A DNA stretch of 64,000 bases, taken from positions 1 to 64,000 of the IMG/VR virus record IMGVR_UViG_3300001765_000034; one strand, written 5' to 3'. The DNA comes from a virus (taxonomy: Duplodnaviria > Caudoviricetes). The position numbers and the translations under genes were made by a program. The notes below the pieces were generated by a model that had not been told where the DNA came from, did not search any database, and saw only the letters and a program-made list of their open reading frames with translations. Below are positions 6,791 through 63,181 of the stretch, piece after piece. How positions within the stretch are numbered: the stretch's first letter is position 1; each line of letters starts with the position of its first letter.

Positions 6791-9700
6791 TTAAGTATTT
6801 CTATATTCAAATGTTGATTTAGTTGTGCCGTATACGCTCCAATGCATTTTATATGTTATTCCTGACCAATAACCATCTGGGCTATTAACATTTCCCGTTG
6901 CTACCGAGGTAATAAAAGTTCCGTCATTAGTTCCATTATCAAATGCGTCTACATACCATTTTGTTTTTGTTGTATAACTATTTTGATATGCAACCCAAAT
7001 ATATTCACTTGACGAATTATATGTTATTGTTAATGTTCCAGATGCTGCAGTTAAAACTTTATTTGCAGTTCCTCCTGAAATTGCAGATGCTATTGACTCA
7101 ACAGTTGGCAACGAACTCATTTTTCCCCAGAAATATGGATAAATTCCTGTTATTGTATATGTTGTAGTTCCAAATGTATTACCTGATAATTGAGGTCCTG
7201 TTGTTGTTCTAAGAGCATAAGCACTAGAATCTGTGTTCCCTTTATTATCTAATTTTTGTAATCCTGAGTCATAATTACCATCTCCTTGATATGTTGTAGA
7301 TCCTCCAGGTATAATGTATGATTCATTATATGGTGTTGGACTAATTGAATATGTATGATTAGGATTATTTGGGTCAGTATACCCGAATTGTGCAGCAATG
7401 TCTGTCGCAGATGATTCGGTTAATGTAGTGTCGGTAAATATTGGTGAACTATTTCGTAAAATTCTTAATTGGGTATATAATCCCGCATCATTTTTAACAC
7501 CTGATAATGTAATATTTGGTGAATATGTTCTACCAATTTCATATGTTTGGTTTGAAACTCCACCTAATGTTATTGTTGGGATAGTATATGTAGGTTCTAC
7601 TGTTGGAAATAATAAATCATTCCAAAGTTGAACATTTGTTTTTCCTGTTAATTGAGAAACCGTTGTTCCTGCTGGTATTCCACCAATAGTTGTCGGGGTC
7701 GCTAATGACGGATCTAATGTTGTATTAAATACGGTATATAATGTATCACCAGTAACACCTGAAATTAACCCTAAACCTGTATTATCACTAACACTAAGGT
7801 TAGTTCCAGTTCCAGATGTTCCCGAACTTCCACTAGTTCCGTCAATTCCTGAAGTGCCTGATGTTCCGTTTATACCTGAAGTACCTGACGAACCATTTAT
7901 TCCAGAAGTACCAGATGATCCACTTGTTCCAGAACTTCCTGAAATCCCGCTAGTTCCAGACGAACCACTGGTTCCATCTAAACCATTTATTCCAGACGTT
8001 CCTGAACTTCCACTTGAGCCAGAAGTTCCATCAATACCACTTGTTCCTGATGAACCAGAACTGCCGGATGTTCCAGAAATACCAGATGAACCACTTGAAC
8101 CTGAAGTTCCAGAAGTACCTGAACTACCTGACGTTCCACTAATACCAGAAGATCCTGATGTTCCATCAATACCAGAAGTACCTGAAGATCCACTTGTTCC
8201 AGAACTACCTGATATACCACTAGTTCCTGATGAACCGTTAGTTCCATCAATTCCTGATGTACCACTAGAACCCGAACTTCCCGATGTACCATTTATTCCC
8301 GAAGTTCCACTTGATCCAGATGTACCCGAAGAACCACTAGCCCCTGATGACCCACTCGTTCCAGAACTTCCAGATAAACCTGAAGTTCCCGATGACCCAC
8401 TAGTGCCGTCTAATCCATTTATACCTGATGTTCCTGATGAGCCAGAACTTCCACTAATTCCAGATGTTCCTGAACTTCCTGATGTTCCATCAATACCGCT
8501 AGTACCACTAGTACCACTTAATCCTGATGACCCACTAGTTCCAGATGTTCCGTCCTGACCGCTTGTCCCTGAAGTTCCGTCCTGACCATCAATTCCTGAT
8601 GTACCACTAGATCCTGAACTACCCGATGTACCATTTATTCCTGATGTACCACTAGATCCGGATGTTCCAGAAGTACCGCTTAACCCAGAGGTTCCTGATG
8701 AACCACTTGACCCTGATGTACCGTCCTGTCCATCTATACCCGATGTTCCACTTGAACCAGATGTTCCGTCAACCCCTGATGTACCACTTGAACCAGAACT
8801 TCCAGACGTTCCATTTATTCCACTTGTACCAGATGACCCTGAAGTTCCTGAAGAACCACTAGTTCCATCTAATCCATCAATTCCTGATGTACCAGAACTT
8901 CCACTGCTTCCGCTTGAGCCAGAAGTTCCTGACGATCCACTAGTTCCGTCAATTCCTGATGTTCCAGAAGTTCCATTTATTCCCGATGTTCCGGAAGTTC
9001 CATCAATCCCTGATGTACCTGATGATCCACTACTTCCAGATGATCCACTAGAACCAGAACTACCTGAGCTTCCGCTTGAGCCCGATGTCCCATCTTGACC
9101 ATCAATACCACTTGTTCCAGAAGTTCCGTTAATACCAGAAGTTCCACTCGAACCTGATGTCCCGTCAATTCCAGATGTTCCACTCGAGCCAGAAGTCCCA
9201 TCTAACCCATTTATTCCTGAAGTCCCTGAACTTCCGCTTGAACCTGATGATCCACTCGATCCGCTTGAACCTGATGAACCACTCGATCCGCTTGACCCCG
9301 ATGAACCACTCGAGCCAGAAGTTCCATCTTGCCCACTTGTTCCCGATGTCCCATTTATTCCAGATGTTCCACTTGAACCAGAGCTCCCAGATGTTCCACT
9401 TGAACCAGAGCTCCCAGATGTTCCACTTGAACCAGAACTTCCAGATGTTCCACTTGAACCAGAACTTCCAGATGTTCCACTTGAGCCAGAAGTACCGTTA
9501 ATTCCTGATGTTCCTGATGTTCCACTAGACCCATCTAACCCTTGAGCCCCACCTATGTTAACATCCCAATTAGAATATGTTCCAGAACCGTAAACTGTAT
9601 CAATATTTCCAACCATATCACCCGTTGATGGGTTATATGAATTAACAGTTCCGGTCATATAATTTGAGCCGTCGTATGCAATAATAAAAGTTTGTCCGGG

Positions 9701-32822: not shown

Positions 32823-33248
32823 CTATTTTTTACTTTTATTAAAATTAAACAACTTTTTGTTATCTAAATCGAAATTTAAAATATCATCGCACAATTTTTC
32901 CATCAGATTTTTAACTTCATCTGAACGTATATCAAAAGGTTTTTCTGTAAAAAAAGTGATTTCGAGATTTAGAAAGGATTTTTTTCCAAGTTTAATACCC
33001 TTTGTCCTAATATCCAGATCGACAATGGATTCTTTTTTAAAAAACTCAGATTGTAAATTACTTATACGTAATTTTATTTTTCTTTTGGATTTTGATATAA
33101 TAGAATCAAACTCATCTTCATCATTTTCGGGTTCCAACCACGAGTTCAATTTTAGATATATCGTTTTTAAATTTTTGTGGTCAACGGTTCCATATCCAAC
33201 TTTCACATTGTTGTAATATCCCAAGGTAATAAATTTCCCTGTTTTCAT
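32823..33248 (-). CDS. Hypothetical protein
   Basis: 141 aa ORF in the head module. Confidence 0.65.
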   Translation of the reverse strand: MKTGKFITLGYYNNVKVGYGTVDHKNLKTIYLKLNSWLEPENDEDEFDSIISKSKRKIKLRISNLQSEFFKKESIVDLDIRTKGIKLGKKSFLNLEITFFTEKPFDIRSDEVKNLMEKLCDDILNFDLDNKKLFNFNKSKK

Positions 33249-33331
33249 TCAAATTCATCATAATATATAATTTTTATGGTGTTATATAAAATATATGAAA
33301 AAGAATCCATAAATCCAAAAAAAAAACGGAC

Positions 33332-34066
33332 TTAAAGTCCGTTTTTCAATTGTTGTAGTTTGTAGTAATTGTATTTGGTTGGTTTTAACTCCTCTGATTC
33401 CTTTTGTACAGAATTTAGTTTAGATTTTAATTCACTATTGTCTTGACATTCGGTTATCATTTTATCGAGTTTTAATGTTACCTCTTCTTTTAACGATTTA
33501 AAATTATTTTCCAGATCGTTAAGGGACATTGTAAGTATCTCTGATAATTTTGTCTTATCTTCTTCGCTCAACATTTGATCAAAATTATTATTAAACCTAT
33601 CAACTAACACAAAATTTAACAAATTTTCATTACTGGTAAATTTGTTAGTAGATTCATTAATTTCTTTTTCCTTTGTTAAGTGTTCAATTAATTTTTTTCT
33701 AGCTGAGATTTTCTTATCAATATTCTTAAAAGTGTCATCTTCTGAGAGAATATCTAAATAATTGTAAACTTCAACTTCATTAACTTCAGCTTTCGGTAGA
33801 CGTTTGGTAATAGATTTACAAAATTCCTCAACTTTTTTAGATTTATCTTTTAACAACCTCTCAAAACTTTCAACAAAAATTTCGGGATGGTCTTCAGTTT
33901 TAAGGTACATACCTTCAATTTCTTCATAAAACAGATATAGTTCTCTAAAATCTTTATTTTCTTTAAGAATTTTTAAGATATCTTTTACTTTGTTCTTATC
34001 ACCAGCTATATACGATTCAGCTAAGTTGTGTAAGATGTTAACTTTTAATGCTCCAATTTTACTCAT
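33332..34066 (-). CDS. Hypothetical helical head-module protein
   Basis: 244 aa ORF overlapping the portal stop. Confidence 0.65.
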   Translation of the reverse strand: MSKIGALKVNILHNLAESYIAGDKNKVKDILKILKENKDFRELYLFYEEIEGMYLKTEDHPEIFVESFERLLKDKSKKVEEFCKSITKRLPKAEVNEVEVYNYLDILSEDDTFKNIDKKISARKKLIEHLTKEKEINESTNKFTSNENLLNFVLVDRFNNNFDQMLSEEDKTKLSEILTMSLNDLENNFKSLKEEVTLKLDKMITECQDNSELKSKLNSVQKESEELKPTKYNYYKLQQLKNGL

Positions 34067-35981: not shown

Positions 35982-36031
35982 ACCTATAAATATTGTTTAT
36001 AATGTAAAGATTTTTTTTTTATAATTGAAGC

Positions 36032-46635: not shown

Positions 46636-46736
46636 ATTGACTTTTTATCAATTTACCAGTATTTATATTCTTGCAGGTACTCTTTGTCGATTACCTTTCG
46701 TTAAGAAAACTGATGGTTTTGAACCCATCTAGACCT

Positions 46737-46765
46737 AAACCCCGATGATTGTCGGGGTTTTTTTT
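46737..46765 (+). terminator. Intrinsic terminator
   Basis: AAACCCCGA-TGATTG-TCGGGGTTT followed by a T run. Confidence 0.8.
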
Positions 46766-46814
46766 GTTTTGACACTTTTTTTCTTTATATTTATTAAAAA
46801 CTAATAAAAATAAA

Positions 46815-47135: not shown

Positions 47136-47470
47136 TCAGTCAAAAGTCGTTTTTTTGAGTTTTTGGCAGTAGGTTTCTTTGACCCTAAAACTGAATCATC
47201 ACCTAATCCAGGTTCTGTATCGGGATCTTGTATTGGATCCGAATTTACAACTCCCGGAGGTGTTTTCCATAACTGAACTCTTTCATATGCACGAACCCCA
47301 AGTAAACCCCCAATAAAGAATAACAATTCATAGTATTCTTTATCAGTAAAAATTACCACATAAACAACTAATAAAGAAAATATATATGAAAGAATTTTTT
47401 TAATTGAATAGTCACAATTTTCTTGAAGTAAGCACGAAGCAAAAATTCCTATTTTTTTTAAAAAGTTCAT
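47132..47470 (-). CDS. Small membrane protein (2 TM)
   Basis: Two hydrophobic helices and a charged tail; holin-like only by inference. Confidence 0.55.
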   Translation of the reverse strand: MNFLKKIGIFASCLLQENCDYSIKKILSYIFSLLVVYVVIFTDKEYYELLFFIGGLLGVRAYERVQLWKTPPGVVNSDPIQDPDTEPGLGDDSVLGSKKPTAKNSKKRLLTD

Positions 47471-60613: not shown

Positions 60614-62136
60614 CAGTAGTAATATCAACAAGACAAATTGATGAGAAACATATAAACACGGTAAAAAAAGCCTTTTCTCATCCGAAAACTGAATTTCTCA
60701 TTTACGAAAATGACAATAAAATGTCATTATCTGAGGTATATAATAAAGGATTGAAAGAGGCAACTAATAATTATATCGTCTTTATGCACGATGATCTCAT
60801 TATCAACTCAACTAATATGTCAAACAAAATCAATAAATTGTTTGAAAATTTTCCTGAGTATGGTATCATTGGTGTTGCAGGAACTACTGATTTAGTTAAT
60901 GGAACTTGGTGGGATATCCGGAAATCTATGCACGGAAAAATGTCTCATACACAAAATGGAAAAATATGGACTAACAAATACTCATCAGAGTCACTGATTG
61001 ATACATTAAAAGATGTTGTGACTTGTGATGGAGTATTCTTCATTGTTGATAAACGAAAAATTAAACACAATTTTGATGAAGATTTTAAAGGTTTCCACTT
61101 TTATGATATTCCATTCTTTATTAAAAATTATATCGAAGGGGTGAAGATTGGAGTTACTACCAGATTCGATTTGTTACATAAGTCTGTTGGACAAACAAAC
61201 GAACAATGGGAAGAAAATAAAAAACAGTTCGAAGAAAAATTTAAAGACGTTCTTCCTCTTAAAATGACAAGTAATAAAAGTCTTTTTGAAAAGATAAATT
61301 ATACCAAAGATAATATAGGTGTTGGAATGGTAACGTATAAAGCTGAAGATAGGATTAAACAGTCCGCAGCAACGATTCCCGGATGGGTTAAACATTTTGT
61401 TATCGTTAATGACGGTACACCATATGACCCATCATCATATCCTGAACACGCCCACATAATCCAACATGAAACAAATAAATCGGTTGGACAGGCTAAAACG
61501 TCTGCCATCAATTATCTTATGGAACAAGGGTGTGATCATATCTTTATTATAGAAGATGACATCTTAATTCAGGATGAATCCGTATTCGACAAATATATTC
61601 AAACATCTCTTAACACCGGGGTAAAACACTTAAATTACGCGTTACAGGGTCCAGCCAATAAAAAGGGATCCCAAGGATTTAATAATTTAGAAGATAGGGC
61701 AAAACAAGAACATCTTACCGAACCGAATCCAAGACAAATTGTTAAATATCCAAACGGGCATGAGATAGCAATGTATCCAAATTCAGTCGGAGCATTTTCA
61801 TATTATCAACGAGAGGTTCTTGAAAAGATTGGTGGTTTTGATGTTGTTTATAAAAATGCTTGGGAACATGTTGACCATACTATGGATGCGTTTAAAAACG
61901 GATTCACAACTCCTTATTGGTGGTTCGCTGACATCAATGAATCTTGGAAATATATAAAGGACATTGATGGTTGTATAGAAAACTCAACAATTGGACATAC
62001 ACCAGAATGGCAAGAAAATTACCAAAAGGGTTATTTACATTTTAAAAAGAAATACGGATGGGGTCCAACTGAAGTTCCGGATACGTCGCCAGAACACATT
62101 CAGAAGATTTTAACCCATCTTTTCCAAAATAAATAA
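60601..62136 (+). CDS. Two-domain GT2-like glycosyltransferase
   Basis: N-domain IVFMHDD...GIIGVAG...TCDGVF...FHFYD; C-domain VIVNDGT...FIIEDD...GGFD. Confidence 0.8.
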   Translation: MELLTVVISTRQIDEKHINTVKKAFSHPKTEFLIYENDNKMSLSEVYNKGLKEATNNYIVFMHDDLIINSTNMSNKINKLFENFPEYGIIGVAGTTDLVNGTWWDIRKSMHGKMSHTQNGKIWTNKYSSESLIDTLKDVVTCDGVFFIVDKRKIKHNFDEDFKGFHFYDIPFFIKNYIEGVKIGVTTRFDLLHKSVGQTNEQWEENKKQFEEKFKDVLPLKMTSNKSLFEKINYTKDNIGVGMVTYKAEDRIKQSAATIPGWVKHFVIVNDGTPYDPSSYPEHAHIIQHETNKSVGQAKTSAINYLMEQGCDHIFIIEDDILIQDESVFDKYIQTSLNTGVKHLNYALQGPANKKGSQGFNNLEDRAKQEHLTEPNPRQIVKYPNGHEIAMYPNSVGAFSYYQREVLEKIGGFDVVYKNAWEHVDHTMDAFKNGFTTPYWWFADINESWKYIKDIDGCIENSTIGHTPEWQENYQKGYLHFKKKYGWGPTEVPDTSPEHIQKILTHLFQNK

Positions 62137-62196: not shown

Positions 62197-62598
62197 GGGG
62201 GTGAATTGACTTGATTTCAAGTATCAAGGATAAATTGCAAGTAGTCAGATGTCATCTATGACTTTAATACACGGTGGTAACTTTTAGACGGCAACGTTTA
62301 CAAAAACATGGAAATTGCAGGTTTACTTGCAACTTCTAACGTTTCAGTAGCTTAGGCGAACAAACGAGAGGGTCGGGGCACATGTACCTGGTAACAGAAG
62401 TGCTTAAGGTGTAATACAACCATAAAAGTGTTAAGAGTCTCGTTTGGGGTGCTACTTTATTATAAGTGAACCCTCCACAGTTTTTGGTAACGGTGGCAAA
62501 ATAGGAACCGAATATTTGTCCGTTATGAATAACGGAATAAACTTGTAGTAATTTATTGTTGAACAGGAAAGACCGCGAAGCGATATCGCGCACCTCCA
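62197..62598 (+). ncRNA. ssrA: tmRNA (transfer-messenger RNA)
   Basis: GGGGGTG/CACCTCC-A acceptor with G3:U70; T-arm CGCGA-AGCGATA-TCGCG; internal tag ORF 62290-62355 GNVYKNMEIAGLLATSNVSVA*. Confidence 0.88.
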
Positions 62599-62636
62599 CA
62601 AATACTATCGTTCTTTACCATATAGGAGATTAAAAA

Positions 62637-62981
62637 ATGACAGTAGATTTACTATCACTTATTTTAGGTATGGGTCTGGTGTTAGTTATTGCTTTTGCAA
62701 TAGGTGGCGTCGTGGCTCTAGTTAAGGTAATGAGATTAGAACGTAACTCAAATAACATCGATATTGGAACTCAACAGCAACTCGATGATATTAGGAAAAC
62801 TGTTGGTACAGAAATTGGTGAGATAGATCACAAAATCCAAAATCTTTATAGAGATATGGATTCTCGATTCGATAAATTTTATAGTAAGATTATTCAGGAA
62901 ACTAATCCAAAACAGAGGATACTGAATATGATAAATTCCGGTACTTCGTCGGATTCGACGGAAAATAGCCATAAAGAATAA
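62637..62981 (+). CDS. Membrane-anchored coiled-coil protein
   Basis: N-terminal TM segment; followed by a terminator at about 63010-63041. Confidence 0.6.
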   Translation: MTVDLLSLILGMGLVLVIAFAIGGVVALVKVMRLERNSNNIDIGTQQQLDDIRKTVGTEIGEIDHKIQNLYRDMDSRFDKFYSKIIQETNPKQRILNMINSGTSSDSTENSHKE

Positions 62982-63064
62982 ATAAACTTAAAGAACGATA
63001 GTATTAAACAAAAAAGGTACTTTAGTAAAGTACCTTTTTTTATGCTTTAAAAGTTGGTATAACG

Positions 63065-63155
63065 AACAAAGAGGCCGAAGCCTCTTTGTCGAGATAGAAA
63101 CACCTCCTTTTCGTTTGAAAACTTTATCGTGGTATGGGGACCAATCCATACCCTC
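63065..63155 (-). ncRNA. Candidate sRNA carrying an extended Shine-Dalgarno sequence
   Basis: ATATTTAT upstream on the minus strand, 5' hairpin, GAAAAGGAGGTGTTTC, then a C(UUCG)G terminator hairpin; no start codon follows the SD. Confidence 0.45.
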
Positions 63156-63181
63156 TTAGATAAATATCGCGAAGGTTAGTT

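Follow-up and report, generated by a model that had tools for sequence, protein, structure and literature searches.

A probable non-coding RNA gene with an rpsU-class Shine–Dalgarno sequence and no start codon in bS21-type Bacteroidota jumbo phages

The minus strand of an intergenic gap in an uncultured giant lake phage very probably carries a real, conserved and independently organized non-coding RNA gene of bS21-type Bacteroidota jumbo phages, with an extended Shine–Dalgarno (SD) sequence of the rpsU class and no start codon behind it. The sequence indicates that the product is most likely an RNA of ∼95–105 nt. This RNA could well act as a non-translatable decoy for the free 3′ tail of 16S rRNA, a tentative reading that is weighed here against several others. 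The gene, its conservation, structure and strand, the complementarity to the 16S tail and the genomic associations are direct observations.

Layout of the locus

The window, the whole 64,000-nucleotide stretch of DNA analysed, comprises bases 1–64000 of an 84,149-bp IMG/VR virus record with a GC content of 35% and an estimated completeness of 27% (CheckV). The element sits in a 200-bp gap separating two convergent genes, which encode proteins of 114 residues (62637–62981, plus strand) and 345 residues (63182–64219, minus strand). Its unit spans 63167–63058 of the minus strand and starts 14 nt past the stop codon of the 345-residue gene. Read in that direction, the order is the stop codon, GATATTTAT, hairpin 1, a linker, AAACGAAAAGGAGGTGTT, a spacer, ATCTCG, hairpin 2 and a U-rich tail; the SD, hairpin 1, the UUCG terminator and the other elements noted in a first-pass annotation of this DNA are all present at their minus-strand places. 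The features of this locus, together with two RNA genes that are discussed with it, are as follows.

63160–63168, minus strand: late-promoter-like motif GATATTTAT, its core TATTTAT unchanged in 62 of the 65 distinct members
63167–63160, minus strand: ATATTTAT, as read in the sequence
63131–63152, minus strand: hairpin 1, a 7-bp stem of GGTATGG (63152–63146) and CCATACC (63137–63131) with compensatory changes
63138–63145, minus strand: loop of hairpin 1, ATTGGTCC, also written AUUGGUCC; family consensus (A/U)UUGGUCN
63117–63130, minus strand: A/U-rich linker, poorly conserved in sequence and predicted to be unpaired
63099–63116, minus strand: extended SD mimic AAACGAAAAGGAGGTGTT, with 12 nt perfectly complementary to 16S AACACCUCCUUU
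63110–63099, minus strand: 12-mer AAAGGAGGTGTT, present as a single copy in the window
63096–63101, minus strand: variable spacer, 6 nt here and 5–10 nt in the family, differing in length and sequence
63090–63095, minus strand: ATCTCG, invariant in the family as AUCU(C)G, which could pair with GAGGU of the SD
63089–63066, minus strand: hairpin 2, ACAAAGAGGC-TTCG-GCCTCTTTGT, 10–11 bp with a UUCG loop, followed by TCGTTAT
63058–63089, minus strand: hairpin 2 with the U-rich tail, the probable intrinsic terminator of the sRNA
63010–63040, both strands: second, bidirectional terminator, common to the convergent 114-residue gene
62197–62601, plus strand: phage tmRNA gene (Rfam RF00023, 50.1 bits against a gathering score of 47, in E-value mode only)
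46660–46767, plus strand: candidate partner sRNA with a late promoter motif (GTATTTAT) and a U8-run terminator

The motif at the start of the unit recurs through the record. ATATTTAT occurs 39 times, with 26 of these occurrences within the intergenic 11% of the sequence (a six-fold intergenic enrichment), and 18 of the sites are followed within 40 nt by an ATG on the same strand; the shorter core TATTTAT has 26 such sites, compared with six in the reverse orientation. As the motif is found upstream of the portal, large terminase and head protease genes and of endolysin-like genes, it has the behaviour of a late promoter, and its placement implies a putative phage-specific late promoter with very short leaders. 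Within the RNA family TATTTAT is held at a fixed distance from hairpin 1 in the 62 members that keep it, and the full GATATTTAT is found in most but not all of them. The divergent members L211–L213 lack TATTTAT and may be made from an upstream transcript.

The form (A/G)TATTTAT(A) stands 5–20 nt before the ATGs of portal, terminase, protease and lysis genes (e.g. record positions 35986, 32802, 57539 and 66303). The motif is unlike the host TAnnTTTG −7 element that is seen on host rpsU. One copy of ATATTTAT, at 62136, lies 61 nt upstream of the tmRNA, and in relatives the motif also precedes the phage bS21 gene. The tmRNA gene was missed by a whole-window scan at the gathering score and by ARAGORN. 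In many relatives it adjoins the sRNA tail to tail, with its 3′ end 20–70 nt from the sRNA terminator.

The RNA family and its complementarity to the 16S tail

The syntenic contigs L004, L005–L008 and L009 were reached through homologues of the upstream protein. In these contigs that protein is only 35–52% identical, but the ∼130-nt element is nearly unchanged. A family search was then based on a pattern from the 3′ half only, ATCTCGRCAAAGRG-N11-TTTGTTYGTT, with no requirement for the SD, hairpin 1 or the promoter. It matched 20 IMG/VR contigs and 60 metagenome contigs, and the whole unit was present in every match. Covariance models R1 and R2, used to search the whole records of relatives, added the divergent members L211–L213 and L215. 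The resulting alignment comprises 81 copies (65 distinct) from related uncultured jumbo-phage contigs. The similarity between relatives starts exactly at GATATTTAT. At the other end, a clear U-run follows hairpin 2 in divergent members, and in several relatives the promoter of the next gene lies directly 3′ of hairpin 2.

Other searches were unproductive. Scans of IMG/VR with each of the two flanking gene products singly gave no matches, and neither did a DNA pattern that required the hairpin 1 loop and the linker. The sole match of the first DNA pattern (L003) was a chance match within a GC-rich coding region, and L214 (G003) was a false hit of the covariance model to the terminator only. No covariance model of Rfam 15 matched at its gathering score, and E-value mode returned only chance-level sRNA matches of at most 22 bits. 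Full-text literature searches found no paper describing the SD-mimic RNA family. The element has no DNA match among the INPHARED phages, in which the neighbouring glycosyltransferase (511 residues) has only remote mycobacteriophage matches; the phage therefore appears to have no cultured relative.

Both hairpins are supported by covariation. Among the 65 sequences, compensatory changes occur at seven of the eight pairs of hairpin 1 and at five of the 11 pairs of hairpin 2, in which 100% of the cells are paired. None of 500 shuffles reached the observed covariation, and the signal collapses when the registers are slid. The alignment used was fitted to the model, which favours the structure of the model, but plain MAFFT alignments show these compensatory changes too. 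G·U and U·G pairs are frequent (for example, G·U in 55–65 of the 65 sequences at three positions), and because these would become A·C mismatches on the other strand the RNA is read from the minus strand of the window. The loop of hairpin 1 is nearly invariant although its stem covaries. No complement to this loop was found in tmRNA or in the sRNA itself, and none that is conserved was found in 16S rRNA. A pseudoknot between the loop (UUGGU) and a downstream ACCAA was considered and rejected, as ACCAA is missing from many copies or is occupied by the next promoter.

The 16S genes of five Flavobacteriales genomes end in ...GGAACACCTCCTTT|CT, which confirms the GGAACACCUCCUUUCU tail that the first-pass annotation had given for Bacteroidota. 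The 12-mer AACACCTCCTTT occurs 11 times in these five genomes, at least eight of these occurrences being mapped 16S ends, and the 16S tail is essentially its only perfect target there. A 12-mer match is not significant alone (39 of 100 shuffles give at least one match at no more than one mismatch). The complementarity here extends over 12 contiguous Watson–Crick pairs, or 14 with G·U, and gives the best 16S-tail duplex on either strand of the 84-kb record (−22.5 kcal/mol, the next best being −18.5 kcal/mol). The ∼12 bp of anti-SD complementarity originally noted is thus present and is the strongest in the whole record, and the accompanying claim that the phage genes here lack SDs was borne out.

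The decisive evidence that the match exceeds chance is its conservation: each of the 65 distinct copies in the family has GG(A/G)GGU and, 5′ of it, an A-rich flank. The predicted pairing to Flavobacteriales 16S nucleotides 1532–1544 has an energy of −13.6 to −17.7 kcal/mol in every copy, compared with a 0.1-percentile of −13.2 kcal/mol for the genome background. All 65 copies therefore lie below the −13 kcal/mol that marks the rpsU class (PMC9976891), with the reservation that our energies come from the ViennaRNA duplexfold model, which may differ from the model used in that work. In L211–L213 and L215 both hairpins differ in sequence, and the extended complementarity is kept but continues in a different direction (AAGGAGGUGUUC and GGGGGUGUUCC). 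The SD is the best-conserved part of the element even in these divergent members, which is the opposite of the pattern (SD lost, hairpins kept) that the first-pass annotation had named as contrary to its proposal. With the A-to-G variant of the core, seen in L239, L267 and the model hit L215, pairing to the U of CCUCC is retained; some members of the family have an A directly after GGAGGU, which is a mismatch to the 16S C.

Two metagenome relatives, L239 and L267, have a duplicated ATCT (ATCTATCTCG) and the SD core GGGGGG, and L268 has a 10-nt spacer, a natural spacing variant. All three are natural variants that would be useful for testing the spacing and the short helix discussed below.

The closest known counterpart is the translation initiation region of rpsU, which encodes bS21, in Flavobacteriales and other Bacteroidia (Jha et al. 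2021, PMC7797042; McNutt et al. 2023, PMC9976891). Bacteroidota ribosomes hide the anti-SD, and in Flavobacteriales essentially only the rpsU mRNA uses it, by way of ribosomes lacking bS21 (PMC9976891). In Flavobacterium johnsoniae no gene except rpsU has such an SD, the hallmark being an SD stronger than −13 kcal/mol (McNutt et al. 2023, PMC9976891), and rpsU is preferentially translated by ribosomes without bS21 (PMC9976891). Host rpsU and the phage RNA share an extended SD that pairs with up to 12–13 nt of the 16S tail at less than −13 kcal/mol, an A-rich 5′ flank (AAACGAAAGGAGGUGU) and the position of a unique such site in a genome otherwise without SDs. Examples of rpsU leaders (aaacGAAAGGAGGTGT in Capnocytophaga, and aaacGAAAGGAGGTGTatagattATG) are, the start codon aside, very like the phage RNA. 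Unlike host rpsU, the element is encoded by the phage, has no start codon or ORF and carries a terminator hairpin behind the SD; in no copy does the SD stand at SD spacing upstream of an rpsU start codon. The phage SD is also somewhat weaker than most host rpsU leaders, 16 of 17 of which fall at −16.5 to −21.4 kcal/mol with one outlier (L106) at −11.4 kcal/mol.

Sites of the form AAGGAGGTRT in a more distant phage, G035 (L216, L219, L221 and L222), which has a partial homologue of the 511-residue glycosyltransferase, were set aside as ordinary strong SDs before start codons, and the host of this phage therefore presumably uses SDs. The glycosyltransferase family is found in phages whose hosts belong to different phyla.

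Host, bS21 and possible functions

The host was sought by comparing the phage bS21 proteins of relatives with one genome per GTDB species. The best matches are almost all Bacteroidota (Flavobacteriaceae, Saprospiraceae, Chitinophagales and Bacteroidales), with one metagenome-assembled genome labelled Oxalobacter, in agreement with the prediction that bS21 phages infect Bacteroidetes (Chen et al., PMC9723584). Through these matches of its relatives, and so indirectly, the present uncultured giant lake phage is assigned Bacteroidota as its probable hosts.

Whether the genome encodes bS21, a check proposed in the first-pass annotation, gives a divided answer. The gene is present in 10 of the 13 records that carry the RNA, the three exceptions being fragments of 12–39%, and in 11 of the 35 records without it. 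Searches of the present record with Pfam PF01165 and with a phage bS21 profile did not find it. The bS21 gene of G001 lies between homologues of window genes 32823–33248 and 33332–34066, and the syntenic slot here (33248–33332, between the neighbour of the head protease gene and the gene before the portal gene) is an 83-bp spacer with a bidirectional terminator and no bS21. The phage seems to have lost, never gained or relocated the gene. Conversely, the bS21 phages G002, G004 and G036 have no detectable RNA, G004 and G036 being near-complete. The association between the RNA and bS21 is real, but it is not obligatory and is confounded by phylogeny.

In the preferred reading, the RNA would be made from the phage late promoter motif, with termination at hairpin 2. 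Its SD would pair with the host 16S 3′ tail on those 30S subunits whose tail is left free by bS21, bS18 and bS6, with the unpaired AAAAG as a toehold that opens a weak GAGGU/AUCUC helix. As the terminator hairpin just downstream could not enter the mRNA channel, the complex formed would be unproductive. The decoy would compete with host rpsU mRNA and disturb the feedback of host bS21 late in infection, a stage at which the phage, in most relatives, would make its own bS21.

Comparable titrating RNAs are CsrB and RsmZ, which are SD mimics, and the prophage anti-sRNAs AgvB and AsxR. They follow the same logic as that proposed for the phage RNA, in that an abundant untranslated RNA displays a site copied from mRNAs. 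The phage RNA differs in having a single site rather than many GGA loops and in that its proposed target is rRNA rather than CsrA or an sRNA; no homology to CsrB/RsmZ or AgvB/AsxR was detected with Rfam. If the decoy reading is correct, the anti-SD of rRNA would be a new target class for RNA decoys. bS21 is the ribosomal protein that phages carry most often, and the takeover of host ribosomes by phage bS21 is an open question (PMC9723584). McNutt et al. speculated that products of bS21 phages interfere with the rpsU loop (PMC9976891). A conserved phage RNA that has a late promoter motif and reproduces the docking site of rpsU, minus the start codon, is a tangible candidate for a product of this kind, and F. 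johnsoniae offers established assays of wild-type and bS21-deficient ribosomes as well as rpsU′-gfp reporters.

Several observations count against the decoy reading. The SD core is paired with AUCUC in ViennaRNA predictions, the present record lacks bS21 and the three bS21 phages named above lack the RNA. Replete Bacteroidia ribosomes hide the anti-SD, so that only a subpopulation would be accessible to a decoy. Moreover, a candidate partner RNA would cover half of the SD, and the real target may be that partner.

The predicted intramolecular pairing is also the basis of another reading. RNAalifold and partition-function folding (ViennaRNA) give a 5-bp GAGGU/AUCUC helix, a junction closed by AACG/CGUU and an unpaired AAAAG. 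This helix is possible in all 65 copies and is invariant, apart from the loss of its first pair in L211–L213. Because its bases never vary, covariation neither supports nor refutes it, and because it is weak compared with the intermolecular duplex it does not exclude pairing with 16S rRNA. The helix might imitate the SD/anti-SD duplex and make the RNA a sponge or chaperone for host or phage bS21. P6 of OLE RNA, a stem that mimics the SD/anti-SD duplex and to which bS21 binds (PMC12054373), would be the model for such a role. OLE RNA and the phage RNA are both non-coding and linked to bS21, and the pairing of an SD-like with an anti-SD-like sequence in OLE has its predicted counterpart in the phage RNA; OLE is a Bacillota RNA of ∼600 nt with a perfect copy of the anti-SD, in contrast to the phage RNA, in which the anti-SD-like strand is just AUCUC and the helix has no covariation support. 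The paired state of the helix in the predicted ensemble, the change of its sole variable pair from A–U to G·U and the association of the RNA with bS21-encoding phages are consistent with binding of bS21. Against it, the helix is only 5 bp long including a G·U pair and has lost its first pair in L211–L213, bS21 is absent from the present record, and binding of bS21 would not account for the conserved AAA(A/G) and GU(U) flanks, which lengthen the match to the 16S tail. We consider this role for the RNA unlikely.

A regulator acting on other RNAs without ribosome contact is about as improbable. The conserved segment would then be a seed for the candidate partner sRNA at 46660–46767, or for other host or phage mRNAs, and its likeness to an SD would be secondary. 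The partner emerged from an intergenic duplex scan of the record, which singled out position 46678 on the plus strand, and in its unit the promoter motif recurs together with a terminator. Its blocks CTCTTTGTCGA, ACCTTTCGTT and GAAAAC are complementary, in collinear order, to UCGACAAAGAG, AACGAAA(A)GG and GUUUUC of the SD-bearing RNA (two blocks of 9–11 nt and one of 6 nt), the UCGACAAAGAG block being the 5′ arm of hairpin 2. Homologues of the partner with 73–78% identity occur in six relatives, all of which also carry the SD-bearing RNA; where measured, the two genes are ∼25–26 kb apart on opposite strands. The duplexes have z-scores of −2.1 to −3.2, and their energies are better than those of 292–300 of 300 shuffles. 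The complementary blocks in the relatives measure 11 + 11 nt and would leave AGGU and the spacer looped out and unpaired, so that the invariance of GGAGGU is not explained by this pairing. No compensatory change between the two RNAs was seen, only differences tolerated through G·U, and in the present record the A4/U3 blocks need a bulge to pair. The pairing itself is plausible on these data, and if it takes place half of the SD would be masked.

Other targets of the same segment were sought as well. No phage mRNA in the record stands out as a target of the SD seed; one candidate, at 47246, lies inside a coding ORF and was rejected. Pairing of the SD with the 3′ end of tmRNA (CACCUCC) was likewise discarded, as it involves only 7 nt inside the acceptor stem and shows no covariation.

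The decoy reading can be extended into a scheme that brings in the partner and the phage bS21. Expressed late, the three would together capture the single circuit of Bacteroidota that depends on an SD: the decoy would seize the sequestered 16S 3′ tail of 30S subunits without bS21, or pull it free, and would block the rpsU feedback of the host, and the partner would switch the decoy on or off by covering half of its SD. This scheme is more doubtful than the decoy alone. If true, this would be the first demonstrated case of a ribosomal anti-SD as the target of a trans-acting RNA and would offer a direct handle on the reprogramming of ribosomes by bS21 phages.

Coding capacity and neighbouring genes

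No ATG, GTG or TTG lies 3–14 nt after GGAGG, either here or in any of the 66 distinct copies, so that the initial remark that no start codon follows the SD applies to the family as a whole. The family contains no conserved ORF, and no bS21 ORF lies behind the SD. A 53-codon ORF at 62988–63149 was dismissed, since its ATG lies inside the loop of hairpin 1 and is missing from relatives. The only candidate start is AUC, which occurs 7–8 nt past GGAGG in 60 of the 66 copies.

Such an AUC would be needed if the element were instead a small mRNA whose extended SD loads ribosomes on a tiny ORF, with a start–stop arrangement in L211–L213. The precedent is rreB, an mRNA of 165 nt that binds 30S subunits, co-sediments with them through its 17-nt SD and is weakly translated (Hahn et al. 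2016, PMC5711450). Like rreB and rreR of Alphaproteobacteria, the putative phage transcript is short, conserved and marked by an unusually long SD, and its AUC stands at the optimal spacing for an SD. The differences are that rreB and rreR are cellular, have 16–17 nt of complementarity and a real small ORF with a GTG start, and belong to hosts that use SDs and have a free anti-SD. The phage RNA has 12 Watson–Crick pairs (14 with G·U) where at least 16 nt of 16S complementarity characterizes rreB/rreR, and in place of a conserved small ORF with a start codon it offers AUC only, a very poor start codon. The frame that begins there crosses the terminator hairpin and runs for one to 68 codons with no conserved stop, and the changes in hairpin 2 are compensatory at the RNA level and alter the amino acids. 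Translation of this kind is very unlikely.

Least probable of all is that the element is a passive 3′ UTR or terminator region of the upstream 345-residue gene without a trans function, as its position in a convergent intergenic region just past the stop codon and the missing promoter motif of L211–L213 might suggest; the element is much better conserved than the upstream protein, has a nearly invariant promoter motif and is followed by a separate downstream terminator, and its upstream neighbour varies. A homologue of the 345-residue protein lies upstream in only six of 68 copies, the upstream gene differs between lineages and in 31 of the 68 copies the 300 nt upstream contain no ORF on the same strand. 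The 3′ UTR alternative offered in the first-pass annotation is therefore rejected for the family, and its description of a discrete unit without an ORF is upheld: the unit is conserved and non-coding and, as judged by sequence, has a late-type promoter motif and a terminator of its own. A putative promoter and terminator, a conserved structure, no ORF and variable neighbours are together the marks of an independent trans-acting sRNA gene.

Among the relatives, L009 alone has a GIY-YIG/NUMOD3 homing-endonuclease gene (8814–9452), which lies between its glycosyltransferase and metallophosphatase genes.
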